From: Tubulanus polymorphus | Lineage: Eukaryota > Animalia > Nemertea | DNA length: 64,000 nucleotides | Assembly: GCF_964204645.1 (NCBI RefSeq) | Contig: NW_027437448.1 | Span: 1 to 64,000 of the forward strand | Direction of reading: 5' to 3' | Part shown: in pieces, positions 13,261 through 60,600 of the stretch | Layout of the letters: each line of letters opens with the position of its first letter | How positions within the stretch are numbered: position 1 is the stretch's first letter | Made by a program: the position numbers and the translations under genes | Notes under the pieces: model-generated | Told to the model about the DNA's origin: nothing | Seen by the model: the letters and a program-made list of their open reading frames with translations, nothing else | The model's database searches: none

Positions 13261-15432
13261 TCAATAAGTCGAGCCCTCGGGAGGTTGCGGTAACTTGACG
13301 TTTTCTTTAAGAGTCATTGTTTTTCTGAAATCTGCCAATAATGTTTTTATACGCGATTTTTCCGACCAACGATTTAAAAATGGAAATTTCTTCACTTCGA
13401 TCTGTGAAAAATAAAACATGGTAATTTTCAGTTATAAATCCTCAATATTTCAGGTGAACGCACGCGATGACTGAGGTTAGACTGAGGTTAGACTGAGGTT
13501 AGACTTACGTTGCCGTTGCTACCAACTCCATTCATATTTATTCTAGTTATAAATCTCACTGTCGGAGCCTCTTTCGGATATTTAGGTCCACATATAATTC
13601 GTAATGAATAAATTCTATTTTCACAAGTCGTCTGAAATTCGAAGAGAAGAAACTGTTATAATTGTTGATACTACGGAGCTGGATCTGATTGAACACGTCG
13701 TTCTGATCAGGTACAACTTCAGCCCGCCGGCTTGACCACATACAACCCCTACAGCCCATGGGCTGGGTTATATGCGGCCAAGCCCACGGGCTGAAGGGAT
13801 TTATGTGGTCAAGCCCTCAGGCTGAAGCGGTTGAGTGTTGTAGAGCCCGCGATGGTTGTAACTATGGTCGAGGCCACAGACCGGATACTAACCCTCACAG
13901 GTCCGACTATTGTCGCAGACCGGATACTAACCCTCGTAGGTCCGACTATTGTCCCAGACCGGATACTAACCCTCACAGGTCCGACTATTGTCGCAGACCG
14001 GATACTAACCCTCGTAGGTCCGACTAATGTCCCAAACCGGATACTAACCCTCGCAGGTCCGACTATTGTCCCAGACCGGATACTAACCCTCACAGGTCCG
14101 ACTATTGTCCCAGACCGGATACTAACCCTCACAGCTCCGACTATTGTCCCAGACCGGATACTAACCCTCACAGGTCCGACTATTGTCCCAGACCGGATAC
14201 TAACCCTCACAGGTCCGACTATTGTCCCAGACCGGATACTAACCCTCACAGGTCCGACTATTGTCCCAGACCGGATACTAACCCTCGTAGGTCCGACTAA
14301 TGTCCCAGACCGGATACTAACCCTCACAGGTCCGACTATTGTCCCAGACCGGATACTAACCCTCACAGGTCCGATTATTGTCCCAGACCGGATACTAACC
14401 CTCACAGGTCCGACTATTGTCCCAGACCGGATACTAACCCTCACAGGTCCGACTATTGTCCCAGACTGGATACTAACCCTCGCAGGTCTGACTATTGTCC
14501 CAGACCGGATACTAACCCTCGCAGGTCCGACTATTGTCCCAGACCGGATACTAACCCTCGCAGGTCCGACTATTGTCCCAGACCGGATACTAACCCTCAC
14601 AGCTCCGACTATTGTCGCAGACCGGATACTAACCCTCGTAGGTCCGACTAATGTCCCAGACCGGATACTAACCCTCACAGGTCCGACTATTGTCCCAGAC
14701 CGGATACTAACCCTCACAGGTCCGACTATTGTCCCAGACCGGATACTAACCCTCACAGGTCCGACTATTGTCCCAGACCGGATACTAACCCTCGCAGCTC
14801 CGACTATTGTCGCAGACCGGATACTAACCCTCGCAGGTCCGACTATTGTCCCAGACCGGATACTAACCCTCGCAGGTCTGACTATTGTCCCAGACCGGAT
14901 ACTAACCCTCGCAGGTCCGACTATTGTCCCAGACCGGATACTAACCCTCGCAGGTCCGACTATTGTCCCAGACCGGATACTAACCCTCACAGCTCCGACT
15001 ATTGTCGCAGACCGGATACTAACCCTCGCAGGTCCGACTATTGTCCCAGACCGGATACTAACCCTCACAGGTCCGACTATTGTCCCAGTCCATGTTGATA
15101 AAGTTATATCATGATCATCTTCTAAACCCCAACTTATATTTCCATCTCCTCCTTTTTCTCCTTGTTCTAATTCTTCAAGAAGGACGAAATTGCGAGGAGT
15201 TACAATCCCTCCTGATCCTAATAAAACAAAACAATCAATCAATCAATTACAGTTCCAGGACTAAGGGCTGGGGACTGGCGAGTGGCCCAGTGGAAGATTT
15301 ATGTCAAGGCTCTACTGGTGGTTGTGGGCGTGGCCCAGGGCACACTGATGATCGGGTAGCAGGCTGTGTAGAGGTTTTATATAATCAGGAGATATTTTTA
15401 CCTTGTTTCGAGCTCGGATCTGAGGTCGCCAT
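13261..15432 (-). CDS. UBE2V: Ubiquitin-conjugating enzyme E2 variant (UEV1/MMS2 family), copy A
   Basis: Exons 15432-15402, 15217-15063, 13631-13509, 13401-13261: [54 protein letters not shown]/..[23 protein letters not shown]/..[15 protein letters not shown]; no catalytic Cys. Confidence 0.93.
13879..15088. repeat. 39-bp minisatellite (~31 copies) built from the UBE2V-A exon 2/intron 2 junction
   Basis: Minus-strand unit TGGGACAATAGTCGGACCTGTGAGG|GTTAGTATCCGGTC = last 25 nt of exon plus first 14 nt of intron. Confidence 0.93.
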
Positions 15433-15796
15433 CAGTGAAGAGCGCCGAATACCCCGACTCTACTAGGAAAAAAACACGCCTTTCCGCGTATGTCCTATGA
15501 AAAACATACCGGACCGAGACCTATTAAACTTGGCCTTGGAAAAATAAGATCAATTTTAAAACAGAAGTTCTTAGTTAGAGTTAATAATTTTATCAATATG
15601 AAATTGATTTGGTTTGTTTCAATTGTAAATATGATGAAAATCATTTTTAGGAAGTAAATTGTGTAACATAGTGAATTGAATTGATTGGTCAGAGAGCTCG
15701 CTGTGAAACCCGCCGGTAAATATTATAGCAATAAACATCTGAAATTCGCATAAAATACTTTCAATTTATACCTAATTGGGTGTTTACTGTTTGGTG

Positions 15797-16139
15797 AAAG
15801 TGCAGATCTGCACCTCTCTGCGTTAACGGTTCAATCAATTACATTAAATATAATTGTTTCAGATTCAAAATGTCATCAGACATCAGCAATTCATACATTG
15901 CCATAAATAGTAGTTAGTTACCTAATCGTTGGTGGTAGCTTTTTATAATCGGATGGGCTTATACCTGACTGTGGTTTGTGAAAGTATCCGATCGTGAAAC
16001 TAAACCACAGACAGGTTACTATATCTAACATTGCCATTGGTTAATTTTAAGATATCTTCACTGACACTGGAAAGATTTTAGCCTGGATTCTATCATTCAG
16101 TAGATTGCGTCAATCACGAGAGGCGCTGATCTGCACTTT
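15797..16139. mobile_element. MITE-like element with ~30-bp imperfect terminal inverted repeats
   Basis: aaagtgcagatctgcacctctc at left is the reverse complement of gagaggcgctgatctgcacttt at right (2 mismatches). Confidence 0.6.
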
Positions 16140-16268
16140 AACCCCCTGTTTTATAAGTTAATTATCAGCTATTCTTTTATAATCGACTTTCGCATTTTTT
16201 AACTCCAGAATCACGAGAAGGAACAAACCTGAAACGGGCACCTGCCGCTTCTTACATTATCCATAGTA

Positions 16269-16562
16269 GTCATACTGTCTGGCTCTTAACCCTGGCCCTG
16301 GGCCCCCTCGTCATACTGTTGGGCTCATAACCCTGGCCCTGGGCTCCGTCGTCATACTGTCTGGCTCTTAACCCAGGCCCTGGGCCCCGTCGTCATACTG
16401 TCTGGCTCTTAACCCTGGCCCTGGGCCCCGTGGTCATACTGTCTGGCTCTTAACCCAGGCCCTGGGCCCCGTGGTCATACTGTCTGGCTCTTAACCCTGG
16501 CCCTGGGCCCCATCGTCATGCTGTCTGGCTCTTAACCCTGGCCCTGGGCCCCGTCGTCATAC
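16269..16562. repeat. ~41-bp minisatellite (~7 copies)
   Basis: gtcatactgtctggctcttaaccctggccctgggccccgtc. Confidence 0.9.
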
Positions 16563-16845
16563 ATGGTTATGCTCTTCCTGACCCTAGGCCCATTCAGCCG
16601 GGCTTTACCCGGGCTAATGAGGCCCGAGAAGCTCTTACACTATGTGAAACTCGGTTAGAGAAATTGTTTAGAGTATGAGTTATTTATTAGACTGGTTGTG
16701 GGTATTGTTCACAGTTCTCTTCAGAACTCTGTTTGTTAAACATAATACAGTCTGATCAATCTGGTGTCTTATAATTCACCCTGGAATATTTATTCATTCG
16801 GTTTATTTATTGACCTTCCACATTCTTGTAGGCTTTTACCTCTAG

Positions 16846-18476
16846 GAGCAGAGCACGCTACTGTTCTCATGGTGGCTCGGAGCGCGCTACTGTTCTCAGG
16901 GAGGCTCGGAGCACGCTACTGTTCTCAGGGTGGCTCGGAGCACACCGCTGTTCTCAGGGTGGCTCGGAGCAAGCCGCTGTTCTCAGGGTGGCTCGGAGCA
17001 CACTGCTGTTCTCAGGGTGGCTCGGAGCACACCGCTGTTCTCAGGGTGGCTCGGAGCAAGCCGCTGTTCTCAGGGAGGCTCGGAGCACGCTGCTGTTCTC
17101 AGGGTGGCTCGGAGCAAGCCGCTGTTCTCAGGGAGGCTCGGAGCATGCCGCTGTTCTCAGGGTGGCTCGGAGCACGCTACTGTTCTCAGGGTGGCTCGGA
17201 GCACGCTACTGTTCTCAGGGTGGCTCGGAGCACGCTACTGTTCTCAGGGTGGCTCGGAGCACACCGCTGTTCTCAGGGTGGCTCGGAGCAAGCCGCTGTT
17301 CTCAGGGTGGCTCGGAGCACACTGCTGTTCTCAGGGTGGCTCGGAGCACGCTGCTGTTCTCAGGGTGGCTCGGAGCACGCCGCTGTTCTCAGGGTGGCTC
17401 GGAGCAAGCCGCTGTTCTCAGGGTGGCTCGGAGCACGCAACTGTTCTCAGGGTGGCTCGGAGCACACCGCTGTTCTCAGGGTGGCTCGGAGCAAGCCGCT
17501 GTTCTCAGGGTGGCTCGGAGCAAGCCGCTGTTCTCAGGGTGGCTCGGAGCACACTGCTGTTCTCAGGGTGGCTCGGAGCACGCCGCTGTTCTCAGGGAGG
17601 CTCGGAGCATGCCGCTGTTCTCAGGGTGGCTTGGAGCACACCGCTGTTCTCAGGGAGGCTCGGAGCAAGCCGCTGTTCTCAGGGTGGCTCGGAGCACGCC
17701 GCTGTTCTCAGGGTGGCTCGGAGCAAGCCGCTGTTCTCAGGGTGGCTCGGAGCAAGCCGCTGTTCTCAGGGTGGCTCGGAGCAAGCCGCTGTTCTCAGGG
17801 AGGCTCGGAGCACACCGCTGTTCTCAGGGTGGCTCGGAGCAAGCCGCTGTTCTCAGGGTGGCTCGGAGCACACTGCTGTTCTCAGGGTGGCTCGGAGCAA
17901 GCCGCTGTTCTCAGGGAGGCTCGGAGCAAGCTGCTGTTCTCAGGGAGGCTCGGAGCAAGCTGCTGTTCTCAGGGAGGCTCGGAGCAAGCCGCTGTTCTCA
18001 GGGTGGCTCGGAGCAAGCTGCTGTTCTCAGGGTGGCTCGGAGCAAGCTGCTGTTCTCAGGGTGGCTCGGAGCAAGCTGCTGTTCTCAGGGTGGCTCGGAG
18101 CACGCCGCTGTTCTCAGGGTGGCTCGGAGCAAGCCGCTGTTCTCAGGGAGGCTGTTCTCAGGGTGGCTCGGAGCACGCCGCTGTTCTCAGGGTGGCTCGG
18201 AGCAAGCTGCTGTTCTCAGGGAGGCTGTTCTCAGGGTGGCTCGGAGCAAGCTGCTGTTCTCAGGGAGGCTCGGAGCATGCTGCTGTTCTCAGGGAGGCTG
18301 TTCTCAGGGTGGCTCGGAGCAAGCTGCTGTTCTCAGGGAGGCTGTTCTCAGGGTGGCTCGGAGCAAGCTGCTGTTCTCAGGGAGGCTCGGAGCAAGCCGC
18401 TGTTCTCAGGGTGGCTCGGAGCATGCCGCTGTTCTCATGGTGGCTCGGAGCATGCTGCTGTTCTCAGGGTGGCTCA
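16846..18476. repeat. 29-bp GC-rich minisatellite (~55 copies)
   Basis: ctgttctcagggtggctcggagca(c/a)gccg; lacks stops on +, generating the three spurious 500-aa ORFs. Confidence 0.95.
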
Positions 18477-18662: not shown

Positions 18663-19267
18663 ATGACGGTTGTACCTCGTAATTTCCTATTACTTGAAGA
18701 GTTAGAGGAAGGACAGAAAGGAGGTGATGGAAATATCAGCTGGGGTTTAGAAAAAGACGATGATATGACTTTAACAACTTGGACTGGAATGATTCTAGGA
18801 TTGCCTCGGGTAAGTATCATACCTCCTCACCTCCTCATTATACCTCCTCACCTCTCTCATTATACCTCACCTCCTCATCTCTTGATTGTTTCAATATTTT
18901 CAGACGACTTGTGAAAATAGGATCTATAATTTACGAATTATATGCGGACCTAAATATCCTAAAGAGCCCCCTATTGTCAGCTTTACTACTAGAATCAATA
19001 TGGTGGGAGTAGATGGATATGGCAATGTAAGTTCTGAATCTAGTTCCACAGTTGTGGACTCATTTCCACAGTAATGTGGACAGAATGGAAGTGGTTAATG
19101 ATGCTGATATATTTGTATGATTTCAGATTGATATGAAACGTTTCTCATTTTTCAACCAATGGTCTAAAGATTCTAGTATCAAAACAGTTCTGACTGAAAT
19201 ACGAAAAGCAATGGGTCATAAAGAGAATGCTAAATTGCCTCAACCTCCGGAGAATTCAACTTATTGA
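18663..19267 (+). CDS. UBE2V: Ubiquitin-conjugating enzyme E2 variant (UEV1/MMS2 family), copy B
   Basis: Exons 18663-18809, 18904-19026, 19127-19267: [46 protein letters not shown]/..[16 protein letters not shown]/..[15 protein letters not shown]; same intron positions as copy A. An upstream exon may exist (acceptor at 18657). Confidence 0.92.
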
Positions 19268-19532: not shown

Positions 19533-21231
19533 CTGGGTTCGAAACCGGGACACCCCTGTACATCCTCTATTCAGCATCAGGACAACTCTGAATCAGTGTC
19601 AGTAATTACTGGGTCTGAACCCGGGACACCCCTGTACATCCTCTATCCAGCATCAGGACCACTCTGAATCAGTATCGGTAATAACTGGGTTCGAACCCGG
19701 GACACCCCTGTACATCCTCTATTCAGCATCAGGACTGCTCTGAATCAGTGTCAGTAATTACTGGGTCTGAACCCGGGACACCCCTGTACATCCTCTATCC
19801 AGCATCAGGACAACTCTGAATCAGTATCAGTAATTACTGGGTCTGAACCCGGGACACACCTGTACACCCTCTATCCAGCATCAGGACTGCTCTGAATCGG
19901 TGTCAGTAATTACTGGGTCTGAACCCGGGACACACCTGTACACCCTCTATCCAGCATCAGGACTGCTCTGAATCGGTGTCAGTAATTACTGGGTCTGAAC
20001 CCGGGACACCCCTGTACATCCTCCATTCAGCATCAGGACTGCTCTGAATCGGTGTCAGTAATTACTGGGTCTGAACCCGGGACACCCCTGTACATCCTCC
20101 ATTCAGCATCAGGACTGCTCTGAATCGGTGTCAGTAATTACTGGGTCTGAACCCGGGACACCCCTGTACATCCTCTATCCAGCATCAGGACAACTCTGAA
20201 TCAGTATCAGTAATTACTGGGTCTGAACCCGGGACACACCTGTACACCCTCTATCCAGCATCAGGACTGCTCTGAATCGGTGTCAGTAATTACTGGGTCT
20301 GAACCCGGGACACACCTGTACACCCTCTATCCAGCATCAGGACTGCTCTGAATCGGTGTCAGTAATTACTGGGTCTGAACCCGGGACACCCCTGTACATC
20401 CTCCATTCAGCATCAGGACTGCTCTGAATCGGTGTCAGTAATTACTGGGTCTGAACCCGGGACACCCCTGTACATCCTCCATTCAGCATCAGGACTGCTC
20501 TGAATCGGTGTCAGTAATTACTGGGTCTGAACCCGGGACACCCCTGTACATCCTCTATCCAGCATCAGGACAATTCTGAATCAGTGTCAGTAATTACTGG
20601 GTCTGAACCCGGGACACCTGTACACCCTCTATCCAGCATCAGGACTGCTCTGAATCAATGTCGGTAATTACTGGGTCTGAACCCGGGACACCCCTGTACA
20701 CCCTCTATCCAGCATCAGGACTGCTCTGAATCAGTGTCAGTAATTACTGGGTCTGAACCCTGGACACCCCTGTACACCCTCTATCCAGCATCAGGACTGC
20801 TCTGAATCAGTGTCAGTAATTACTGGGTCTGAACCCGGGACACCTGTACACCCTCTATCCAGCATCAGGACTGCTCTGAATCAATGTCGGTAATTACTGG
20901 GTCTGAACCCGGGACACCCCTGTACATCCTCTATCCAGCATCAGGACAACTCTGAATCAGTATCGGTAATTACTGGGTCTGAACCCAGAACACCCCTGTA
21001 CACCCTCTATCCAGCATCAGGACTGCTCTGAATCAGTGTCAGTAATTACTGGGTTCGAACCTGGGACACCCCTATACATCCTCTATCCAGCATCAGGACT
21101 GCTCTGAATCAGTGTCAGTAATTACTGGGTTCGAACCTGGGACACCCCTGTACATCCTCCATTCAGCATCAGGACAACTCTGAATCAGTGTCAGTAATTA
21201 CTGGGTTCGAACCTGGGACACCCCTGTACAT
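19533..21231. repeat. 76-bp minisatellite (~22 copies)
   Basis: ctgggtctgaacccgggacacccctgtacatcctctatccagcatcaggactgctctgaatcagtgtcagtaatta; outer copies carry gggttcgaacc. Confidence 0.95.
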
Positions 21232-21374
21232 TCATTCTCAAAACAATAAAGACATAAAAAGAATGGTTAATGTGTAAAATACAGAATCATTTTATTAAGT
21301 CTCAAAAATAGTGAAAAACTTAACCATACACAATCAACAAGATGAGCAGCTTATTGGGGAAGAGGCTATTAGCA

Positions 21375-21889
21375 ATACGAGGATTGATTAGTTTTTCGGG
21401 GGCTTATAGTACTAGGATTGATTAGTTTTTCGGGGGCTGATAGTACGAGGATTGATTAGTTTTTCGGGGGCTTATAGTACTAGGATTGATTAGTTTTTCG
21501 GGGGCTGATAGTACGAGGATTGATTAGTTTTTCGGGGGCTGATAGTACGAGGATTGATTAGTTTTTCGGGGGCTGATAGTACTAAGATTGATTAGTTTTT
21601 CGGGGGCTGATAGTACTAGGATTGATTAGTTTTTCGGGGGCTGATAGTACGAGGATTGATTAGTTTTTCGGGGGCTGATAGTACTAGGATTGATTAGTTT
21701 TTCGGGGGCTGATAGTACTAGGATTGATTAGTTTTTCGGGGGCTGATAGTACGAGGATTGATTAGTTTTTTGGGGGCTGATAGTACGAGGATTGATTAGT
21801 TTTTCGGGGGCTGATAGTACGAGGATTGATTAGTTTTTCGGGGGCTTATAGTACTAGGATTGATTAGTTTTTCGGGGGCTGATAGTACG
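21375..21889. repeat. 34-bp minisatellite (~15 copies) containing the last codons and stop codon of AMT
   Basis: Minus-strand unit (c/a)gtactatcagcccccgaaaaacTAAtcaatcct; the first copy is the true YYQPPKN* end. Confidence 0.93.
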
Positions 21890-24800
21890 ATGCAGCTACA
21901 AACGGCATTTTACTAACTGTCGCCTGTACGAGTTTATTTCGCACTTTTATTTGAACTTTCGTATTATTTTTACTGAACGGTGTTTCTATGTAACCCATAG
22001 AGATGTTTGTTTTCAGTGTTGGTGACGGCGAACCGCTCGTTATTTTACCAATTTCTTTTTCACCAGATTCATCAAAGATTACAGCGCCACCTACAATAAA
22101 CAATACATTACAGAAATCAGAATCAATTCTTGGTGAACATATGGATACACCTGGGCCTGGATGCTTACCCTGAGCAGGAGCCCTGGATATCCGCCTGCCG
22201 GATACCCACCCACCAGAACCCGGATACTTACCCCGGGTTGGAGCCCCGGATACCCGCCCACCAGACCCCGGATACTTACCCCGGGTTGGAGCCCCGGATA
22301 CCCACCCACCAGAACCCGGATACTTACCCCGGGCTGGAGCCCCGGATACCCGCCCACCAGAACCCGGATACTTACCCCGGGCTGGAGTCCCGGATACCCG
22401 CCCACCAGAGCCCGGATACTTACCCCGGGCTGGAGCCCCGGATACCCGCCCACCAGAACCCGGATACTTACCCCGAGCTGGAGCCCCGGATGTTGAAACA
22501 AATCCAACTCTTTTCTTTGTCGGTTTATTCTTTAATTGTTCCAATATGATTTGAGCCCCGGGAAAGTCCGCAGTTTTCCTCCTACGTTTACCTGTATCCA
22601 AATCAATAAAACAAACACAAAACTGAGTAAATAAGGAATAAGCTTTGGTTAGTTGGATGTGGTCCGGACTGGTCGGGACCGGTGTGTACCTATAGTCCAC
22701 GCGAGAGTGCCCTCTATTGGTGTAGTATTCTCATCTATATCGTTTCCGTATAAACACAATCCAGCCTCTAATCTCAGTGAATCACGTGGTCCAAGTCCGG
22801 CTAATTTCACATCCATTGTTTTACTAGACAGTAATATCTCACAGATTTCAGCAGCTTTATCTTCAGGTACCGATAACTAGAAATAGATCGCACATACACA
22901 TAGACAGATACCTGAGATAGACAGATACCTGAGATAGACAGATACCTGAGATAGACAGCTATCTGAGATAGACAGTTATCTGAGATAGACAGATACCTGA
23001 GATAGACAGATACCTGAGATAGACAGCTATCTGAGATAGACAGATACCTGAGATAGACAGATACCTGAGATAGACAGATACCTGAGATAGACAGCTATCT
23101 GAGATAGACAGCTATCTGAGATAGACAGATACCTGAGATAGACAGTTATCTGAGATAGACAGCTATCTGAGATAGACAGCTATCTGAGATAGACAGCTAT
23201 CTGAGATAGACAGATACCTGAGATAGACAGATACCTGAGATAGACAGATACCTGAGATAGACAGATACCTGAGATAGACAGATACCTGAGATAGACAGTT
23301 ATCTGAGATAGACAGCTATCTGAGATAGACAGCTATCTGAGATAGACAGCTATCTGAGATAGACAGCTATCTGAGATAGACAGCTATCTGAGATAGACAG
23401 TTATCAGATAGACAGTAATTGAGACAGCCACCAGATAGACAGACAGCTGTCAGATATTTACCTCTACCCCGTCCTCACCAGTATAACCACATCTCGTCAC
23501 ACGACAGTTTTTAATTCCACATAAAGTTGTTATGACACTCGTCATAAAATATAATTTACTGAGATCGGTTTCAACGAGTGGCTGTAACGCTTTTACCATT
23601 CCGGGACCTACAATACACAATACATACACAATACACAATACGTCGTCACAAAGGAGACCCTTTAATCAGCTGCAGCCCATGATAAACTGGTCAACTCTTA
23701 ATCAGCTGCAGCCCCTGATAAACTGGTCAACTCTTAATCAGCTGCAGCCCCTGATAAACTGGTAAACTCTTAATCAGCTGCAGCCCATGATAAACTGGTC
23801 AACTCTTAATCAGCTACAGGCCTCGATAACTATTTTACCTTGAAGAGCTAATAAAGCCATATTGATTTTTTCTACATTCACATCTAAACCTTTACCGATC
23901 ATTTCACTTTCTTTTGCCTGGAAATAGAAAATAAACAATTGAATGAATCATTTCTATCGCCATGAATCACTCATTATTCAAACAATCGTCATAGTTACCT
24001 TCATATTATTGAAATCTTTATCAGCGCAGGCAGCATTAGAAACTACGTATAAATAATCTTCATTAGTTTTAGTGATAATTAAATCATCGTTAATTCCGCC
24101 ATTATCGCGAGTAAATAACGATAGAGTTCCCTGATTATCCTTCAATCCTTCGACATCGGCCACTGTTAAACTCTCCATAAATTCAATTCTATTTTTACCG
24201 GTGACTTTAGTTTGAAGCATGTGAGACACGTCAAATATCACTGCTTTATTACGGCAATGTTCATGAGATATAATCAACGAATCTTTATATTGAACTGGCA
24301 TCAAATATCCGGCGAACGGAACCATTTTACCACCTTGACTGACATGAAAATCATATAAACATGTCTTCTTCAAATCAGCCTAAAATATATTCAATGAAAA
24401 TCAACAATGTATTAAAATAGCCTACAGGACTCTACCACCAACGATGGAGCCATCCTCCGTGCTCCACTCCTCTTCCCACAGTGGAGCCATCCTCCGTGCT
24501 CCAGACTCCTCTTCCCACAGCGGAGCCATCCTCTGTGCTCCAGAATGCACCACCCACCATGATGGAGCCATCCTCGGTGCTCCAGACTCAACCAACCACC
24601 ATGATGGAGCCATCATCCGTGCCCCAGACTCGACCACCCACCAACGATGGAGCCATCCTCGGTGCTCCAGACTCCACCACCCACCATGATGGAGCCATCC
24701 TCTGTGCCCCAGACTCCACTACCCACGTTGGAGCCATCCTCCATGCCGGCCCAGACAGTGATTTGGATTATCTGGTGCCAGAATATTCTAAATTGGCCCC

Positions 24801-25203
24801 CAATACTGTCTACGCCTGGTTCAGAGACTCCACTCAACCGACCCATATATTCACGACACAGAATTCACAAGCCGCGTTCGCATTGCGGAAAATAATCAAT
24901 TCGGCCCCTTGTTGAACATAGGCCTAGAACCAAGAAATTCTTGGGTCTATTTCAATTTTCAAGACAATCAGAATCAGTCCAGGAGTGCGCCCCTCCAGAG
25001 GGGTCCAAAGTTCAACAAGTTTAGTAGTCATTCATGGTGTGGTGTGCAATGCAAGCCGAGAGTAGGCCGAGTACTAGAAACAAAAACATGTTTTCAATTC
25101 TTACCTTTGAAGCAAAATAACGACATGACGTAATGACGTCACTGGTGAGGGCTGTTCGTGATGTCACCGCCTGCTGTAACAGTGATAAAACATTCCTCTG
25201 CAT
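21864..25203 (-). CDS. AMT: Aminomethyltransferase, mitochondrial (glycine cleavage system T protein), 7 exons
   Basis: Transit-like [16 protein letters not shown]..; [37 protein letters not shown]; LLALQGP; [15 protein letters not shown]; [24 protein letters not shown]; [24 protein letters not shown]. Start could be 25218. Confidence 0.96.
22161..22490. repeat. 48-bp minisatellite built from the AMT exon 6/intron 6 junction
   Basis: Minus-strand TCCGGGGCTCCAGCCCGGG|GTAAGTATCCGGGTTCTGGTGGGCGGGTA; GTAAGT donors at 22471, 22423, 22375, 22327, 22279, 22231 plus a degenerate one at 22168. Confidence 0.9.
22900..23445. repeat. 17-bp minisatellite in AMT intron
   Basis: gagatagacag(a/c)ta(c/t)ct, ~30 copies. 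Confidence 0.92.
23662..23830. repeat. 36-bp minisatellite in AMT intron
   Basis: ttaatcagctgcagccc(a/c)tgataaactggtcaactc x~5. Confidence 0.9.
24441..24745. repeat. ~40-bp degenerate minisatellite in AMT intron 1
   Basis: gatggagccatcctc.gtgctccagactc.. x~8. Confidence 0.85.
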
Positions 25204-35700: not shown

Positions 35701-35770
35701 AAGACTCATCGGGCAAATGTGATGAGGGTTTGGTTAATCGTTAAAAGGTACACCCTGCAGGTGCTTGTTG
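32725..35770. repeat. 148-bp satellite array (~20 highly homogeneous copies)
   Basis: ORF track repeats every 148 bp; unit includes the inverted pair acaggtaaa..tttacctgt. Confidence 0.97.
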
Positions 35771-35822
35771 AATTTTGTGCCGATACAAGGTAGTTAATCT
35801 GTAATTGATTGTTTCATTGTAG

Positions 35823-44800: not shown

Positions 44801-45731
44801 TTAAATCTGCATTCTTTCATCCAGTGTGGAAATAAAGCTTGAAATGCTTTTATCTTCCATTTATACACATTGTGTATTCAATAAACATTACTGGCTTAGG
44901 GGTATTGCCATCTGTCAGGAAGAGAATGCTCCTGCTCTAAAGTCTACTTCTGTTTTGAACCAATTTTCTGATTACATGGTAGGTGAATAATGGATGGAAG
45001 ATGTGCTGTATTGTTTTTACTCGTGTAGATTATCCAAGATAGCCGCCACAGCTATATTTATAGAGCCTTCATAGTGTAGCTCTAGTTACATTTTATGTAC
45101 AATTATTAAAGAATTTACCAATTTTCAACCCCCTCCTTATATTTTACAAACTTCCAAAAAATCTGCTTCCCCTAGTACGTGCAATGAGTTCTAAATCAGT
45201 TTATCATTATCAGGCAACAGCAATGAAAAAGACGAAACTTTATAGTAAGACTGGGCCAAAGTGCCATAAAGGAGTCATCCTAAAGGTCGGTAAAATGGGA
45301 AGAAAGTACCAAGTCCTGGTCAAAGATTCTCTGTTGTGGGTGGATATTAGTATGCTGACATCCCTGACAAGGATGAAGCAAAAGAAGCTTTTAGGAACTA
45401 AATGTAAGTACTAACGGAATTAACTGTTTCCAAAAGTGCACTGATTCATTAGAATTATTCACACTTGCATAAAAGAGGTTTTACTGTAATTACTGATGAA
45501 TGATGTTGTTTTATTCTTATTCTATGACAGCTCCTCTAAATAGATATTGTATGTGTGTTTCCAAGTGCAAGAAGACAAGGGCACCGAAGTGTGAAAACTA
45601 TATGCACAGAGACTGCTGCAAGAGTGCAGGAAAAAAGTGTGCTCTTCACAATATCCTGTAAGTAATCATCCGATTGGTTGATTTGTAGATAGATGAAATT
45701 TATCTGAAATTTATCTCAAGTGAGTGGTGAG

Positions 45732-45775
<44 letters not shown>

Positions 45776-48621
45776 TGTATCTGCACATATTCGTACACAT
45801 AGATTTTATGATGGCTTATATGATGGATTTAATGGTATATACAACTATGAAAGTGTATTTAATTGAGAATGGTTTTCCATTTTAGGGGTGATGAAACCAT
45901 TTCTACTGAAACCAGGCACATTATGGATCGCGTTGTTGGTGAGGTAGAGCATTTTTTTGTGAATTCTGTCAAATCAATCCTATCGGATCTTTTCATTTGA
46001 AATCTTCATTTAGAGTACCAGATCTATTTAAGGACTTGAGTTGTTGTGTTAATGAATATACATAATAGGAGGCTAAACTTTGCCATAATTTTTCAGTTTA
46101 AGATAGTTGCTAATTCGTAAGTATTTTTTGGCTCACACCAAATCATGTGTATACAAGTGACGCATGCACATGGTTTCTGTTTTCACACCTTTTAATTTAA
46201 TGTGAGTGGTTTAAATTAATTCGAAAATAACAGTTGGTATTATTTGTCAAAGGGTATATATATATATATTTACATCTTGGTGTATGTGCACATATTCTGC
46301 CTTTTATAACACGCTATCAATGTGAAACACATGTATTTACTTTAATCTCTGCAGGTGCTTTAGCGTATGTGTCTGTGTGTCTGGAAGACACATGGACCAA
46401 TACACTATTGATATCTTAACAAATCATATATCATATTCTTTGATTATCCCGTGATCAGTTTACGGTCTAGGTATTGTGTCATTGCTTTTTAGCCAACTAG
46501 TCCCAGCGGGCTATGAAGGTTCAGTTTGTCGGTCCGTAGACAGAATCCAGTTATTTAAGGAAGTTTTACAGATGCTGCGGTAGACAGTTGATAGTTAAGC
46601 ACTTCAAACCAGCTCCCAAGTGGGCAAAATGGGCCTGCACCCCTAGTCTTAGTGTATTTTTCTAATTCTGCTACACTATGCTTTTACGCTATGTATGTAG
46701 TGAAATAATCATGTAATATCCATAAAACCCCTGTGTGATCACATTAATTGTATCGTTTTTCTTTAACATTCCAGTTGAATGCAGACACTCATCATATTGA
46801 TCAATGTGCGCAACAAATATCTGATAAGATTAAAGCTAGTAACAGGTAAGCCATACTATAAACTATAACTGTTATGGTTTGCAATTTCCACACGTTAATT
46901 CATACCAATATCTCATTCCTGAATATTTCAGCTCTGATCAGGGTGACAGCAACGCTCACAAGCAGGGCGTGGAAGGAATGATGACTCTTATTAAGACAGT
47001 GAAGTGAGTAGTCATGATGAATGTACAGTCCACCCCGATATCCCGCCCTCCCCGCCTACTGCCAGGTTTTCTCCATGTACATCTCAAAACACCTCCGATA
47101 TACCGCCATACTCTCTATAGTGTCATACTCTCTATACCGCCAAAATCGTTCTGCACTGATGTGGGCGCAGTATACCAGGGGTTGACATTAGTGGTAAAGC
47201 AAAATCATTTTGATATTAGACACTGGTATCAAACTGCCTCAAGCTTTATTGTATTTAATCCGAATGGTCTAAGAGCAGTCAATGCTAAAGTATGAATCAT
47301 TTTTACTTACAGAGATGTTTCGCAGCTAGAAGATAAGCAATTAACTTATTTGGTTATGCAGAATGAGTGCTATTTGAGGAATATTTTCCAGGGAAAGGTA
47401 GTGTACTTAAAATAATCATATATACCAGTCATTAGCGATTAATTTTGTGTTCAGGTGTCGTACAAAACTATCTCTCTAAGGTATTATATTAGTCTTCCAT
47501 GACTGATATGTATCACAGTATTCATTACTTGTAGTCAACAGTAATGCTCATTTAATATATATATACTTTTAGACTAAATGTCGACGCCATGAAGACTACA
47601 AGAATGGCGGAAAGAGCAGGCGTAAGTTGAAAATTAAGTACAATAACCAGTAGCTAATACCCTGGTAACCAAGTGTTTATGTGCCTTGCTTACTGTATTT
47701 CAGGTAACTTGACCTTGCAAGTACCAATCACTTTGTACAGTGATGCGCAATGTGATGTAATAATAAAGGGATTAATGGACATGTTTTGCCCAACTGATAC
47801 GAAGGTTTGTATATACCGGTAAAGCTTTAAGTAATTTACCCTAGTATATCAAGTATTGCGTATGTAACCCACTTAAGTGAGCCATTTCGGTGTAGACGAA
47901 ATATTTTGGGTTGTTTTAAATATGCTTCAATGCTTGTCTCGCTATGTTCACCAGGGGTTGTTTAATAGTAGATGTTCTATCCTCCCCTGGCAGGGTTCGT
48001 ACCCGATGGCATTGGCACAAAACCCTGCCACATTAGACCGAGTGCGCAGCTACCAGGCAGCTTAGATGATGACATTATCATTATTAGCAAATCAGATATC
48101 CCGGGTTTTCCCATTCTTTGTTGTTCCGTGAAATTTACCTCCGCGATTCTACAGCAAGCAATCTGATTGGTGCCGTAAGTTTTCGCGTGGCAAAGCTGCA
48201 CACCCGGTCAAGTGTGGCAGGGGTTTGTGCCGTGTGGCTGAGTGAAGCGATGCCATCGGGTTCGATTCCCTGCTGTGGGAGGATGTAGATGTACCTGCAT
48301 ATATTGTTATATTTTGTATGTACTGCATTTTTAATGTCATTGATTCCTTAATTTGTTCACAGGGGGCATTGAATATTGAAATTGTCTGATTGCTAAGCAT
48401 TTCAGCAAATGTGCATGTTGTCTCTTAACACTTTGTTAGCCCGACCTCACCAAACTTTTGAATTATATTTTCAGTACATGGATTATGTGTTTCGAGTTTT
48501 GTTGCCAGAAACACTGATAAAGATCTATATGGAGGTCCATCAAACATCACATGTACTAGCAGAAGAACGCTTGGCCGATGCTCTTTTGGGAAGTGAAAGT
48601 GATGAAGACACTGAAAGCTGA
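35823..48621 (+). CDS. 23-exon gene encoding USP (C19) deubiquitinase domain + DDE integrase (Ginger/GIN-like) + SH3/GPY-like region + Cys-rich finger + PWWP3/MUM1-C-terminal-like domain; first exon not resolved
   Basis: Exons 35823-36021, 36512-36593, 37508-37545, 37627-37697, 38298-38383, 38566-38640, 38774-38858, 39101-39214, 39389-39463, 40215-40241, 43207-43953, 44036-44165, 44255-44385, 44646-44789, 45214-45403, 45531-45657, 45886-45943, 46775-46845, 46932-47003, 47313-47397, 47573-47621, 47704-47804, 48475-48621; all GT-AG, phases match, 2904 nt with no internal stop. Motifs GLRNPGNVCFLNSVVQCL, QQQDVMEFF, CLECG, IVIDLKRY, YELYAVITHRG..SGHYVAY..WALADDD; RVQIDLV, VIDVFSRFLWLRP, QTDNGTEFKG, SPRHPQSQGKSER. 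Confidence 0.8.
36650..37090. mobile_element. Degenerate copy of an interspersed repeat also at 47945-48395 (fragment at ~39805)
   Basis: Shared caatctgattggtgccg.aagttttc and gttcac.ag.gggcattgaat.ttgaaattgtc.gattg blocks. Confidence 0.7.
37975..38170 (+). mobile_element. 3' fragment of an L2/CR1-group LINE ORF2
   Basis: YNSGRATRS..LMVPRTLIRSGDHVFKSYGPRLWNTLPVDMRTIVTLRHIKTYL matches the typical L2/CR1 ORF2 tail pattern (LRS..L.VP..G.R.FS..GP.LWN.LP..IR). Confidence 0.7.
39537..39782 (-). repeat. Inverted ~1.6-unit copy of the 148-bp satellite
   Basis: Minus-strand ORF 39508-39756 reproduces the satellite peptide; near-exact reverse complement of the array unit. Confidence 0.95.
40775..42595 (+). 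mobile_element. Solo LTR (Gypsy-like), 1821 bp, in the intron between the USP and integrase exons
   Basis: Ends TGTGGCG..CGCTACA (inverted, TG..CA) flanked by a perfect 4-bp TSD TTTG (40771-40774, 42596-42599); TATAAAA at ~41345 followed ~25 nt later by Inr-like CAGTCATT. Confidence 0.8.
44393..44564. mobile_element. Tc1/pogo-type MITE
   Basis: TA|CAGTAAAACCCC..GAGGCTTTACTC|TA, internal tatagtgaa/ttcactata inverted motifs. Confidence 0.7.
47945..48395. mobile_element. Interspersed repeat with inverted arms containing tRNA-like A/B boxes (SINE- or MITE-derived)
   Basis: tggctgagtga (A-box-like) and gggttcgattccc (B-box-like) at ~48236-48271; 47990-48050 is an inverted degenerate copy of 48195-48275. 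Confidence 0.6.
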
Positions 48622-50727: not shown

Positions 50728-52380
50728 GGTTGTAGGTAAAAATCCCCTGGGTAAAAATCCCCCAGGTAAAAATCCCCCAGGTAAAAATCCCCTAGGTAAA
50801 AATCCCCAATTATTCAAAGTAGGTAAAAGTCCCCCACCTTTTGAATGTAGTCCAAATTAGATACAATTTTAAGGTCAATTTATTCGTATTAATATATTCT
50901 ATTTATTATTTACCTTATAATTGCGTTACATAGAAATATCATGTATAGAAGTTATCGCATTTCAATGAAAAATACAAAATTAGAAGTTAATTAATTCACA
51001 AAATCGCATCACATTAAAAATTACAAATTGGTTGTTCATTAATACTGTATCGCACAAAATATAAGTTAAAAAGAAAACAATCGCACAGTTCAAACATATT
51101 ATGATTTTAATTTTCAAAAAGCACTCTAAATTAAAAGTTTATTTATAACGCACAGCTTAAATAATATATCACAAGTTTAAAAAGGCTCATCAAATAGGTA
51201 AAAGATATTACATTTTGAAGTTTAAAAAGTATTACAAATTAGAAGTTATTAATTAATGTACAAAATCGCATCACATTGTAAATCACATCGCACAGTACTG
51301 CATCGCGCAAAATATAAGTTAAAAAGAGGTCATCGCACAGTTCAGTTTTATTTTCAAAAAGTACTCCAAGTTAAAAGTTACTTTAGTTAACGTTTATCAA
51401 TTCTAATTTCCAAGCGGAATGTTATGACCCACACCACGCAGGAAATCGGCCATATTCAAATGTCCATCATTGTATTGTCGACACAGTATTTGTAATCGTT
51501 CGTGTAACGGACGATGGATGTTGCTAACCCGTCGTTGTGGAACTCCACCGATGGCGTTTTCCATTATCTTGGTGCTTGTGACACTCTGTTCCATTTGAAT
51601 GGGACGGATGGCGCGCCATATAGAAGGGTGTTTTGTGCCCAATCAAATTGCGGAATCTGTTGTTCCATTCTTCTGAAACATTATTAGTTTTTGGGTCAGA
51701 GTTTAAAGTTGCTCGATTTACGTTCCATCTCTCGGGTGCAAATCTCGGAGCAATTCTCCGTATTATGTGTCGATTCTCTTCTCCGATTCTTCTTTCCCTA
51801 TATGTTCCATTAACATATGTCGCATCGAAGTAGTTAATAAGAGGATCACAACCATCTGAGGCAACATCTCGTAGATGTTGCATTCCCGCCACAACATCCG
51901 CAGTGGGAAGAAATGCCAAACCATCAAGCCCACAGAATAACTTGAAATCGTCCTCATTCTGATACCTGAATACATAAGAGTAAATGAGTCAACAACAATT
52001 TGTACAAAATCATTCAATTATTTTAAAAATTAAAAAAAGGTCATTTTCTTACCGATTTGCCATCCCGAGCTCTTGTATCTTGCGCCAGGTTGATTGTCTT
52101 AGGTGATAAAAACAACCCTGAATCTGCAGTGCATCGCCGAAGACAGCTCTTAACGCGTGATGAACATCTCAAAGTCCACTATAACTGTATCGGGATCAAT
52201 ACCATCGACATTTTCACTGATGGCATTGAACAAATCCTCGTATGTACCTTCTGACTTCCGCTGTAAGAATGTGTACACTAAAGGAACTGTTATATTGTCA
52301 ACCAAAGGAGCATGGATGACATACACCTGAGAAAAAAGTGGTGGTGCCATCGAAAAAGTTCACAAAGGATATTGGTGAGG
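50728..52380 (-). pseudogene. Truncated, frameshifted MULE (Mutator-like) transposon with 3' TIR
   Basis: Minus-strand fragments PPLFSQVYVIHA..VPLVYTFLQRKSEGTYEDLF..IVDFE and AFLP..INYFDATYV..FAPERWNV..PKTNNVSEEWNNRF, HPSIWRAI in different frames; TIR ggttgtaggtaaaaatcccc with internal 15-bp repeats at 50728. Confidence 0.85.
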
Positions 52381-52463
52381 AATTAAAACTTGAAAGCAGC
52401 AAGCGGAAAACAGTTCGATTTAAATTTGTCGTAATTCAAAGTAAGCATAGGCAAAGAGCTAAC

Positions 52464-56786: not shown

Positions 56787-56991
56787 ACACGGACTTGACA
56801 CAAAACGATTTTGACCTCAGTATCCTAGGTACTGTCTTTTTATATATAGTACCTAGGATACTGGGGTCAAAATCCTTTTTTCAAGTCCCTGTGGATCTTT
56901 TAGTTAAATGTTTAAATTCCGCAGCGGAACCAGGAAGTGACAGCGTAGCGCAGCGCACCTAGAGCGGCGCGCAGCGCCGCTCTAGGTGCGC
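56787..56991. promoter_or_regulatory. Two hairpins at the probable SPS promoter
   Basis: ~45-bp-arm imperfect inverted repeat 56787-56893; perfect 18-bp GC-rich inverted repeat gcgcacctagagcggcgc (56953-56970)/(56974-56991); ETS-like caggaagtg at ~56931. Confidence 0.55.
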
Positions 56992-57627
56992 GGCCGCCGC
57001 CGTGAAGGTTGAAAATGACACCCTCTAGCGGTTCCTTGTTTGATGTGGTTCCTCGAATGCTACCCCGACACACGGCGTCTTTAATTTAATCAAAAATCGC
57101 GGGCATTTGCATTAAAAAACACGTTATAGTAGAATTTACTTTTATGGTTACAATTTAGCTTTCTTGTATTTTCTTTTTAATTGTACGAGTTAAACAAATT
57201 GTTAAATTGATCGGCCGATCCAGAAAATAAAACCAGTGAGAGTAACCGCGCGGATGAGCGGCACTAGGTTTGTCACGTTAATGCTTTTTCCGGACTCTTT
57301 CACTTTATCATTCCATGGTCGCAAGAATTTGAAGAGCCCAGTACTACACCCTTTCGGGTGCATTTTGGTTTTAACTAATTAATTTTCGCGCCAATTCTGC
57401 CGTCAACGCACGCTATTTACAAACTGCTCCCTCGCAGGGAGCCTCTCATAACAAATCAATCGCGCCTCATTGTAAATGAACGCGGACATCCGGGTATTTC
57501 ACCAGCGACTAGACAAAGAGGGAGTTGGTGATAATTTTGAGCCCCGGAGGAGCCGCGCTCAAAACATTGAATTTATTCTGTAAATACGAATCGACAGCGA
57601 AATTGATCGATTTACAGAGATTCAGCG

Positions 57628-60600
57628 ATGGATAGTGTGGAAGCCGTAGCTGTAGAACAGACCGCTGAACTCACTAATAAACCGGTAATTCGTAGATTCG
57701 TTCCAACCGATCATGATTTGGAAGCCTCTTTCCGACTCACTAAATTTGCCGACCTGAAAGGATGAGGGTGTAAAGTCCCCCAAGAAGTTCTGCTCAAACT
57801 TCTGGAGGGACTTCAAGAACAGGAAAGCAATGAAAGTGTAGTCGCAGGAGATGGTGGAGATGGAACCTATGGATACGGTGCCGGCGGTGCTGCTGCACAG
57901 TTACCTAGAATCGGTAAGTTGTTCATTGCTGGTCCCGAGCCCGAGGAGCCACGTTCAACTTCACGCACATTTTTCATTTCCGAATAAACTTCAAATTCTT
58001 ATAATTTATCGCCATCTGATTCGATAAAAATGATTATTTATTATATTTGAAACATTTGAACAAGAATCAGTTTTATTTAGCGGTCTATTTATGGTTAAAA
58101 TGGTGATCTAATTTCATCGATTCATCTCCCGTTCGTTTCTCTTATTTTCAACATGGCGGATCAAGTCGAGTCACATGATCTGTATATTTGTAAACACGAG
58201 CACGTGTTCAACTACTGGTTCGTCGACTGTCACATGTTTACGACGAGTGGGTTCGAATCCTGAATTAATGGTGTTTGTATTTGTTATTTCAGGTATAGGA
58301 ATGGATTCGTGCGTGGTACCTCTGAGGCAACCTAATTTATCATTGGTGCAAACAACTGATTTTTTCTACCCATTGGTTGATGATCCGTACATGATGGTAT
58401 CTTTTTAGATTTTTTGTGACGTTTTTTTATCCTGGCAGCTTGAGGTGGCCCGGATTGAGGGAGGTGCTGAGACAGGCTGGGTCACTCAGCAGCTGATATA
58501 TTATATAACTGATTTTGGTATATGTATTTTAGGGTAAGATAGCGTGTGCTAATGTATTGAGTGATCTGTATGCTATGGGTGCAATGGATTGCGATAATAT
58601 GTTAATGCTGTTAGGAGTCAGTCAGAAGATGAGTGATAAAGAGAGAGATGTCGTCGTTCCTTTAATCATGAGAGGATTCAAGGTAAAAATCTCCTAAATC
58701 ATTATTTATAAGTCCGTACTTCAATTCATGGTAAAATACTAAACTTCTGTTAAGATGTCTATTTGTGACGTAGTTTTTTGAGTAACACAAGTTGAGGCTT
58801 TACTTCAGACACCTGCACCTGTAGTTGTGGTTATATATTGTAGGATACAGCTGAAGAGGCAGGTACCGCTGTCACTGGAGGTCAAACTGTTCTCAATCCA
58901 TGGTTAACTATTGGGGGCGTGGCTACATCAGTCTGTCAATCAAATGAGTTTATCATGTAAGTTTTTTGTTCGAAGTCTTTTTCGTTAAATTGAGATTCCG
59001 TATTTTAGTGTTTGTGTATTTACGCTAGGCCCGATGATGCGGTAGCCGGGGATGTTTTAGTGTTAACCAAACCGTTAGGAACGCAAGTAGCGGTAAACGC
59101 TCATCAGTGGTTGGACGTTCCTGAAAAATGGAACCGTTTAAAATTAGTCGTCAGCGAAGAAGACGTAAGAAAAGCTTATCACAGAGCGATGACTAGTATG
59201 GCTAGACTGAATAGAACAGGTTCGTACACCTCCCCTCATCCCCCTCCCTATCCTCTCTCCCTTCCTCTCCCCTTCCCTCATCCCTCTAGACTGAATAGAA
59301 CAGGTTCGTACACCTCCCCTCATCCCCCTCCCTATCCTCTCTCCCCCTCCCCTATCCTCTCCCCTTCCCTCATACCTCTAGACTGAATAGAACAGGTTCG
59401 TACACCTCCCCTCATCCCCCTCCCTATCCTCTCTCCCCCTCCCCTATCCTCTCCCCTTCCCTCATCCCTCATACCTCTAGACTGAATAGAACAGGTTCGT
59501 ACACCTCCCCTCACCCCCCTCCCCTATCCTCTCTCCTATCCTCTCCCCCTCCCCTATCCTCTCCCCTTCCCTCATCCCTCCCCCTCTAGACTGAATAGGA
59601 CAGGTTCGTACACTTCCCCTCATCCCCCTCCCTATCCTCTCTCCTATCCTCTCCCCCTCCCCTATCCTCTCCCCTTCCCTCATCCCTCCCCCTCTAGACT
59701 GAAAAGGACAGGTTCGTACACTTCCCCTCATCCCCCTCCCTATCCTCTCTCCTATCCTCTCCCCCTCCCCCTCTAGACTGAATAGAACAGGTTCGTACAC
59801 CTCCCCTCATCCCCCTCCCTATCCTCTCTCCTATCCTCTCCCCCTCCCCTATCCTCTCCCCTTCCCTCATACCTCTCCCTTTAGACTGAATAGAACAGGT
59901 TCGTACACCTCCCCTCATCCCCTTCACCCCCCTCCCCTTTTGTCCCTCCCCTCTTCATCCCCCTTCTTTCTCTAGACTAAATAGAACAGGTTCGTATACC
60001 CTCTTCCCTCCTCATCTCCCCAAACCCCCTCCTCCCCTTCACATCCCCTCCCTCTCCTCCATCCTCTTCATTAGACTGAATCAAACAGGTTCATCTCTCC
60101 TCATCCCCTCTCCCTCCACCCTCTCCCCTCCCCTGTCTCCTCTCCCCTCCCTTCCCTCATCCATCTTCCTCTAGACTGAATAGAACAGGTTCGTACACCC
60201 CTTACCTCCTCTCCCTCTATCCTCCCTCTGATCTTCATCCCCTCCCTCTCCCCTTTCCTCCCTCTTCTCATCCCCCACCCCTTCCATCTCCTCTTTTCCT
60301 CTACCTACCACCCTCTCCTCCATCCTCTCCTCCATCCTCTCTCCCTGTACCTACCACCCTCTCCTTAATCCTCTCTCCCTCCATCCTCTCTCCCTCCACC
60401 CTCTCCTTAATCCTCTCTCCCTCCCTGTGGTGTATATAATAATTAATTGTTTATATTTGTAGCTGCGAAATTAATGCATAAATACAGCGCTCACGGTGCA
60501 ACAGATGTCACTGGTTTCGGGTTGCTAGGACACGCTAATAATTTGGCTCGTATTCAAAAACGTGAAGTCAGTTTCGTTATTCATAATTTACCGGTTATCG

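Follow-up and report, generated by a model that had tools for sequence, protein, structure and literature searches.

Tandem arrays at the exon boundaries of three genes

The window analysed here is a 64 000-nucleotide stretch of the genome of the nemertean Tubulanus polymorphus (contig NW_027437448.1, positions 1 to 64 000). A sequence-only reading of it had described four tandem arrays in three genes, each starting inside the 3' end of a coding exon, and all four proved real: those in UBE2V-A and SPS and the 48-nt array of AMT span a 5' splice donor, while the 34-nt array of AMT spans the stop codon. The gene identities were likewise borne out, with UBE2V and SPS matching the NCBI names and AMT matching Pfam GCV_T.

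The donor-spanning minisatellite of UBE2V-A (13877–15088, minus strand) consists of 31 units of 39 nt, each made up of 26 nt of exon and 13 nt of intron; the final 26 nt of exon 2 (15063–15217, minus strand) form the exon part of unit 1. Donors are intact in 31 of 31 units, and the 30 later ones are all in frame without a stop. Intron 2 (13632–15062, minus strand) is 1431 nt long, or 258 nt if the array is reduced to a single unit. Arrays with 41- and 29-nt units also lie at 16269–18475, near candidate upstream exons.

The AMT region considered (19864–25203, minus strand) holds the coding exons, from 25203 to 21864, and extends into a downstream 76-nt intergenic array. Its donor-spanning minisatellite (22198–22491, minus strand) has six units of 48 nt (20 exon and 28 intron), followed by a degenerate seventh donor at 22168 that differs by one change. 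The host intron 6 (22091–22471, minus strand) measures 381 nt, or 135 nt when collapsed to one unit, and is the sole case among 45 modelled introns to be both a multiple of three in length and stop-free in frame. It offers seven in-frame donors (22471, 22423, 22375, 22327, 22279, 22231 and 22168), the later six all without an intervening stop. The stop-spanning minisatellite (21376–21890, minus strand) has 15 units of 34 nt; the stop codon lies at 21864–21866, with copies 2–15 downstream of it. Introns 1, 3 and 4 of AMT carry wholly intronic arrays with units of 42, 36 and 17 nt, respectively.

The SPS array (59202–60252, plus strand) has 11 units of 79–109 nt, a range that corrects the 84–110 bp given earlier; successive spacings are 84, 92, 99, 109, 108, 79, 108, 91, 99 and 100 nt. 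It starts 18 nt inside exon 5, and its units consist of 18 exon nt, a donor and a C/T-rich spacer, unit 1 comprising 18 nt of exon and 66 nt of intron. The reading frame is lost beyond unit 2: of the 10 later donors, four keep the frame and one is reached without a stop. Intron 5 (59220–60462, plus strand) is 1243 nt long, or 276 nt with one unit. No Rfam family matched the window at gathering score, and none of seven weak Rfam hits behind SPS was a SECIS element. Intact donor copies thus number 31 in UBE2V-A and 11 in SPS, with seven in AMT of which the last is degenerate; among the copies listed, donor scores equal that of unit 1 except for SPS unit 10.

Donor use in the expanded introns

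Five sequencing runs, none recorded as RNA, were available for comparison. We treated X5 as transcript-like on a single ground, namely that its contig skips GT-AG introns. This contig, 1298 nt long at a depth of 9.8 and with 0 other letters, reads through AMT exons 5 and 6, exits at donor 1 and continues into exon 7, so in this one contig splicing takes the authentic donor and gives a normal mRNA. It represents the main form, as contigs drop rare forms, and it bears on one of the three donor arrays; the animal behind X5 may or may not carry the 48-bp array, which is present on contigs of X1 and X2. X2 and X4 have patchy AMT cover and are uninformative on the uncovered parts. Use of the first donor leaves a 381-nt intron, while the seventh in-frame donor would leave a typical one of 78 nt. 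On the usual intron-definition view, the donor closest to the acceptor would be preferred where introns are so short.

For UBE2V-A, the spliced first-donor model is identical to NCBI P0001, and for SPS, NCBI P0002 is a suffix of our model. Predicted first-donor use at both genes therefore agrees with the NCBI gene models, which are themselves no independent proof. Repeat-containing UBE2V-A isoforms were absent from 26 candidates, a weak test. The earlier suggestion that donor duplication is tolerated, with the first donor winning, is thus upheld by one contig for AMT, and the gene models of the other two agree with it. Because the one spliced transcript observed takes the first donor, the donor and stop duplications are likely harmless. 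The 34-nt stop array is probably transcribed, as the X5 contig breaks off with the last unique 31-mer that precedes it.

That end point also bears on the idea that an assembler inflated or invented the arrays: the contig stops exactly at the point where a graph of 31-mers would fork on meeting the 34-bp repeat. Copy numbers do come from the assembly alone, and X1 is possibly the sample from which the window itself derives. However, X1 depth over AMT units 1–2 is 121–267 against 22 on unique sequence, X2, which is another sample, also has contigs at these units, and recurring variants (substitutions) distinguish the units of the arrays. We regard an artefact as highly improbable.

A further possibility is that splicing from later donors is frequent enough to let no units survive but those that are a multiple of three and stop-free, with minor isoforms gaining 13-residue (UBE2V-A) or 16-residue (AMT) repeats. 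The first units of the donor cases are indeed all multiples of three (39, 48 and 84 nt; naive P 0.037), as had been noted, and the later donors of UBE2V-A (30/30) and AMT (6/6) hold the frame. These facts, with the length and openness of AMT intron 6, count against an explanation without any frame rule. Uniform units hold frame automatically, though, so each array counts as one event, and background intronic arrays are multiples of three in 5/16, 5/13 or 5/11 cases depending on the set (Fisher P 0.058–0.21). The poor frame record of the later SPS donors, the X5 contig unbroken at AMT donor 1 and the fact that most of the human units cited below are not multiples of three all speak against such a filter. 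The frame selection proposed from the sequence is accordingly not sustained, and we consider it quite unlikely.

Array positions compared with chance

Tandem arrays make up 23–24% of the bases of the window and occur in 18 of 45 modelled introns, which confirms the very high local density remarked on earlier; 18 of the 45 introns are short (110 nt or less). The 45-intron set omits loci whose models could not be anchored: the USP-like gene (35.8–39.5 kb), the integrase-like gene (43.2–48.6 kb), a small membrane gene (4.4–4.9 kb), the final gene of the window (63.3 kb onwards) and every intron within a UTR. As a comparison set, we used 11–16 further arrays lying wholly inside these introns (2358–60755, no strand assigned), with units of 11–47 nt; none of them ends less than 23 nt from an acceptor. 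No array scoring 70 or more is confined to coding exon sequence in the eight genes.

Three of 14–19 intron-touching arrays span a donor (P(≥3) 0.30–0.87). The number expected is 2.3–3.2 under global placement, 2.8–4.4 within the same introns and 1.9–2.7 across weightings, so there is no excess of donor-spanning arrays (3 observed against 1.9–4.4 expected; 45 introns, one window, n = 3). One array spans a stop, where approximately 0.19 would be expected for eight stops. The sequence-only reading had proposed a boundary-directed or regulatory process and had itself named donor overlap at chance level as the finding that would count against it. Since the overlap does equal chance, a directed process is unsupported.

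The asymmetry between donors and acceptors fared less clearly. As claimed, acceptor-spanning arrays are absent from the 45 modelled introns, against 2.3–2.8 expected (P 0.04–0.07), but base composition confounds the comparison and the deficit fades with GC weighting (P 0.12–0.57). Three donor cases against no acceptor case gives a binomial P of 0.25, and a sign test of donor against acceptor distance was not significant (12/19, 11/16 and 8/14). G+C exceeds the intron background in 25 of 26 units (median 0.53 versus 0.37), the last 20 nt of introns have a G+C of 0.23, and the highest part measured is a peak at intron positions +21 to +40, which reaches 0.43 in the 27 array-free introns.

Array starts were also compared with random placement. 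Counting the spanning cases, 10 of 18–19 arrays begin no more than 20 nt from a donor, roughly double the 4.4–5.8 expected under global nulls with or without GC weighting (P 0.005–0.033); a symmetric within-intron null gave 5.5 (P 0.017). The distance cut-offs were set post hoc and these P values are uncorrected. This excess, which counts against a wholly untargeted origin, is what would be seen if a 5' splice site raised the local duplication rate, so that new arrays arose preferentially at donors or immediately behind them, perhaps through hybrids of nascent RNA with DNA, pausing of the polymerase or the G+C peak near the start of the intron, a peak that array-free introns share. Yet strictly spanning arrays are no commoner than chance predicts, 6.7–8.6 starts are expected within the same introns once the acceptor side is left out (P 0.07–0.31), the strict set has 6/14 against 3.8 expected (P 0.15), and the comparable amphioxus arrays discussed below occur at both boundaries. 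We therefore rate donor-directed mutation as improbable. That the nemertean genome as a whole has donor-biased duplication, with births about twice chance at or behind 5' sites and almost never at 3' sites, is a doubtful proposition also; if true, it would link minisatellite birth to splicing or to the composition of the intron 5' end, and hundreds of donor ladders would allow donor choice to be assayed across the genome of an animal with short introns.

Three sequence-level candidates were also considered. Six identical bases at +7 to +12, common to the UBE2V-A and AMT donors, recur in 3/26 units against 0.55 expected; we rejected this motif because its P of 0.017 is among 762 hexamers. CCGG occurs in 8/26 units against 4.8 expected (P 0.056). 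A 47-bp unit that seemed to be a copy of BBS10 exon sequence was discarded, as the copied sequence is intronic.

Relation to described repeats and probable origin

Published accounts describe closely similar repeats. One is the 37-bp VNTR of human F7 intron 7 (Borensztajn et al. 2006, PMC1557585), and that paper cites others in 6-16, CBS IVS13 (31 bp; PMC2630376), LMNB2 (100 bp) and PDGF (81 bp). There, as here, the first monomer crosses the exon/intron border (exon plus intron 26+13, 20+28 and 18+66 nt in our arrays) and identical donors repeat downstream; up to approximately 25 copies are reported for the human cases. First-donor use with the same anatomy is reported for F7, LMNB2 and PDGF and seen here for AMT, while splicing of human CBS and 6-16 also employs two pseudo-donors (PMC1557585). 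Units of 37, 31, 100 and 157 nt in these accounts are not multiples of three. The window differs in its invertebrate host, very short introns, three cases per 64 kb and first units that are all multiples of three. The earlier notion of a natural experiment in 5' splice-site choice is thus right in idea, but already in print for F7 (PMC1557585).

Similar too are the amphioxus 'mirage' minisatellites of Adh3, troponin C, the globins BflGb6 and BflGb9, and PGBD5 (PMC3087553, PMC3902484), which are likewise gene-private tandem duplications of exon/intron borders recurring across genes in a marine invertebrate. They reportedly leave splicing undisturbed and were suggested to be a general feature of the amphioxus genome. 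Those mirages occur at 5' and 3' borders, whereas the window, from a different phylum, has donor and stop cases only. Literature searches found no report of boundary-spanning arrays in Nemertea, and the passages of PMC10078293 consulted do not mention them.

Duplicated splice signals also feature in intron gain by tandem genomic duplication, in which the new intron takes its two ends from an exonic AGGT (PMC3443670). Birth of introns in this way, a chain of micro-exons or a series of recursive splice points might be imagined above all for the SPS units, whose order is pyrimidine tract, AG, 14 nt and GT and whose length is about that of the shortest introns of the window. Against this, the internal AGs of the arrays score below every real acceptor (best 1.3, −1.5 and −0.4 versus 2.9 for the weakest), and we rejected micro-exons and recursive splice points in SPS on these scores. 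Nor do both splice sites derive from the duplicated segment in any of the three introns: their acceptors lie 107–245 nt past the arrays, beyond ordinary intron sequence. The UBE2V and SPS introns are not absent from relatives, intron 1 of the paralogue UBE2V-B lying at the position of UBE2V-A intron 2 and SPS intron 5 being shared in position with other animals; counted by eye, approximately 32 of the 101 UBE2V hits that match the motif, and 14 of the 120 for SPS, continue into intron-like sequence at the position concerned. As both introns predate their arrays, this is expansion and not gain: unlike in PMC3443670, old introns lengthen and keep their own acceptor, and the intron expansion foreseen from the sequence is plain in the collapsed lengths. 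Intron birth is scarcely credible here.

The arrays are further examples of an already described repeat type, and a targeted process is unsupported by this window. They are probably minisatellites of an exon boundary, like the F7 VNTR and the 'mirages', and an untargeted by-product of frequent tandem duplication in which the first donor or stop defines the product. A short stretch including the exon end would be copied head to tail, likely without targeting, through the very frequent tandem duplication of this genome. Partial terminal units suggest that the seed arose by slippage between direct repeats of 3–6 nt, and it may then have expanded by unequal exchange. Arrays wholly within coding exons would be purged, while those at exon ends are likely retained because the product is still set by the first donor or the first stop. 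Commitment to the upstream donor, as in F7, would silence later donors, so that no frame rule is needed. Acceptor-side arrays may be scarce because AT-rich intron 3' ends make poor seeds, and probably also because such arrays disturb the branch point and pyrimidine tract.

The window thus adds new examples of this repeat type in a phylum for which we found no report. Should the excess of arrays near donors extend to the whole genome, the birth of minisatellites would be tied to gene architecture, and many natural tests of donor competition would be on offer in an animal with introns of 70–110 nt. Annotators should be aware that such arrays create long false in-frame ORFs; that of UBE2V-A stays open through all 31 units.

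Minisatellites at exon ends

Tubulanus polymorphus is a palaeonemertean ribbon worm, and in the window its introns are short and AT-rich and its minisatellites many. All statistics given here refer to this 64-kb window, in which we built eight gene models by hand, comprising 45 GT-AG introns; four further genes without anchored models and all UTR introns lie outside this set. The NCBI protein models for UBE2V (P0001 and P0122) are identical to ours, and that for SPS (P0002) is a suffix of ours. AMT was identified by a Pfam GCV_T match; ING3, NDUFAF6, TMEM208, BBS10 and CUB-LDLa are putative names for window genes. Tandem Repeats Finder returned 100 rows. Merged arrays with a period of at least 10 numbered 41, 31 or 26 at scores of 50, 70 or 100 and made up 23–24% of the window, and none scoring at least 70 lay wholly within a coding exon of the eight models.

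All four arrays described in the sequence-only reading were recovered by Tandem Repeats Finder and unit-by-unit inspection. In UBE2V-A, 31 units of 39 nt each hold 26 nt of exon 2 and 13 nt of intron; all 31 donors are intact and the reading frame is open across every unit. The array at AMT intron 6 comprises six units of 48 nt followed by a degenerate seventh donor, with all seven donors in frame, and this is the sole intron among the 45 that is both a multiple of 3 in length and free of stops. At the end of the same gene, 15 units of 34 nt cover the stop codon. The SPS intron 5 array has 11 units of 79–109 nt; four of its ten later donors are in frame, and donor 2 alone is reached without a stop. 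The authentic donors of the three donor-spanning arrays rank 13, 12 and 32 among the 45 on a matrix derived from introns of the window itself.

Overlap with donors, acceptors and stops

Each array was collapsed to one unit, and the chance of a seed of that length landing on a border was calculated. Arrays touching the 45 introns numbered 19, 16 or 14, with three spanning a donor and none an acceptor. The three donor-spanning cases compare with 2.3–2.6 expected under uniform placement, 2.9–3.2 once acceptor-spanning seeds were removed, 2.8–4.4 given each array's own intron and 1.9–2.4 with G+C-weighted seeds; there was no excess among these introns under any null (P 0.30–0.87). Overlap is at the chance level because collapsed introns are approximately 100 nt long, so that a seed of 20–80 nt often covers a border. 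The very high local duplication rate proposed from the sequence agrees with the array density, while donor targeting and a boundary-directed process find no support in these counts. The single stop-spanning array (approx. 0.19 expected) is unremarkable.

The absence of acceptor-spanning arrays, also noted earlier, holds for all 45 modelled introns and is borderline against the 2.3–2.8 expected (P 0.04–0.07). No array ended within 20 nt of an acceptor, compared to 3.8–5.5 expected (P 0.001–0.012, uncorrected, with a cut-off set after seeing the data). This scarcity could reflect selection against disturbance of acceptors or a bias of composition: G+C content exceeds the intron background in 25 of 26 units (median 0.53 versus 0.37) and is only 0.23 in the final 20 nt of introns. 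With G+C weighting, the expectations fall to 0.6–2.0 spanning (P 0.12–0.57) and 0.9–3.1 near an acceptor (P 0.03–0.41), and the two explanations cannot be separated in this window. Units may also have gained G+C after seeding.

Counting against an untargeted origin, 10 of 18–19 arrays begin no more than 20 nt from a donor, compared to 4.4–5.8 expected under global nulls (P 0.005–0.033) and 5.5 when placement within introns is symmetric (P 0.017), with distance cut-offs picked post hoc on the same data and P values uncorrected. The excess shrinks within introns when the acceptor side is excluded (P 0.07–0.31) and when only the strict set is counted (6 of 14, P 0.15). Array starts may be biased approximately twofold toward donors, and arrays may be scarce at acceptors.

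Reading frame

First units are indeed multiples of 3 in all three donor-spanning arrays (naive P 0.037). Uniform units keep frame automatically, so each array is one count, and wholly intronic arrays are also multiples of 3 in 5/16, 5/13 or 5/11 cases (Fisher P 0.058, 0.20 and 0.21). In SPS, with units of varying length, frame is lost at once and one of ten later donors is stop-free. The suggested filter for frame therefore gains little from these data. Among published units, 37, 31, 100 and 157 nt are not multiples of 3, and 81, 60 and 108 nt are (PMC1557585, PMC2630376, PMC3087553, PMC3902484).

Donor use

AMT (22380–22895) was compared with contigs from four of five listed sequencing runs. 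A single 1298-nt contig from the transcript-like run X5 (study P2), with a depth of 9.8 and no other letters over AMT, skips intron 5 and departs from exon 6 at the first donor, with a loose end that matches exon 7 (22059–22088). Donor choice in the main form of AMT therefore falls on the first, even though an intron of typical size (78 nt) would result from the seventh; the contig reports this main form, contigs drop rare forms, and the X5 animal may or may not carry the 48-bp array. For UBE2V-A and SPS, donor 1 is the one predicted in the NCBI models, which are not independent proof. The idea that the first donor wins thus stands for the AMT main form, from one contig, and is a matter of gene models for the other two.

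If colinear, the X5 contig ends at 21861, the last unique 31-mer ahead of one occurring seven times in the window, from which we infer that the 34-bp AMT array is present and transcribed there. Run X1 has a depth of 121–267 over AMT units 1–2, against 22 on unique sequence, and run X2 has contigs there too; the 48-bp array is therefore present in read data. X1 may be the source sample of the window. Within AMT intron 5 (22592–22649), contigs of X2 and X4, both from sample S2, depart from the window at 22649 into letters absent from it and also differ at 22685; this is probably another allele with an insertion.

Age of the introns

Intron 1 of UBE2V-B interrupts its gene at the codon where UBE2V-A has intron 2. 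Of 120 UBE2V matches examined, 101 carried the exon-end motif and approximately 32 of these ran into intron-like sequence there, as did 14 of 120 SPS matches at the SPS site (both counted by eye). Ordinary intron sequence continues for 107–245 nt beyond each donor-spanning array, and the AGs inside the arrays score lower than the weakest real acceptor, which also makes it unlikely that SPS units act as micro-exons. These features argue against creation of introns by arrays; the old introns of UBE2V-A and SPS were enlarged, in keeping with the proposed route to intron expansion.

Known cases and a possible mechanism

Arrays of this kind are already known. The first unit of the human F7 37-bp VNTR spans the exon 7 donor, the most upstream donor alone is used though others are functional, and a reading-frame explanation is argued against; 6-16, CBS, LMNB2 and PDGF are cited as further human cases, with two pseudo-donors also in use in 6-16 and CBS (PMC1557585). 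The window arrays resemble F7 in the first unit over the donor and, for the AMT main form, use of the upstream donor. Amphioxus 'mirages' lie at 5′ and 3′ borders of several genes with splicing unharmed (PMC3087553, PMC3902484), whereas none of our 45 introns has an acceptor-spanning array. The literature covered, with few subscription papers, contained neither a genome-wide count comparing donors with acceptors nor work on T. polymorphus repeats.

Slippage between short direct repeats (the partial terminal units measure 3, 6 and 5 nt) could create seeds, which would then enlarge via unequal exchange. Arrays within coding exons would be purged by purifying selection, donor-spanning arrays would persist owing to earlier commitment of the upstream donor, and copies past a stop would stay untranslated. 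The observation is real; on present evidence, the proposed process cannot be told apart from duplication that is frequent and untargeted, combined with tolerance.

Neighbouring genes and elements

A 47-nt unit at 6196–6478 includes one of the two arms of a 30-nt inverted repeat, and the second arm lies 62 nt off in the same intron (6541–6570); similar short hairpins occur at 13717–13827. Small hairpin elements may be the seeds of some arrays. An intronless chaperonin-like gene (7057–8773, minus strand, Pfam Cpn60_TCP1), which we take to be BBS10-like, sits within intron 4 of the NDUFAF6-like gene (region 6844–9154, minus strand), both genes reading in the same direction. The UBE2V paralogues are divergent, head to head (13261–15432, minus; 18663–19267, plus), with shared intron positions; between them, possible exons at 15862–15909 and 16210–16264 adjoin 41- and 29-nt arrays and are absent from P0122.

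Codon 46 of the SPS gene (57628–60993, plus strand) is an in-frame TGA within the motif LKG*GCKV, presumably the usual selenocysteine site. P0002, which carries the label 'inactive', begins downstream of this codon; the model is probably cut short, and the gene would encode a selenoprotein or a read-through SPS. Rfam found no SECIS behind the gene.

A spliced ubiquitin-protease-like gene (35.8–39.5 kb, Pfam UCH) is flanked by inverted copies of a 148-nt unit, 20 on the left (32757–35775) and approximately two on the right (39530–39790), with 93–94% identity over 62–76 nt; together they may form a transposon whose terminal inverted repeats are made of this unit. An integrase gene with introns (43207–48620, plus strand, Pfam rve) is probably a DNA transposon, and transposase-like fragments without a Pfam match lie at 51500–52400 (minus strand). 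A low-complexity ORF at the window end (63669–63985, plus strand), also without a Pfam match, carries coding repeats with periods of 6, 30 and 63 nt, all multiples of 3.
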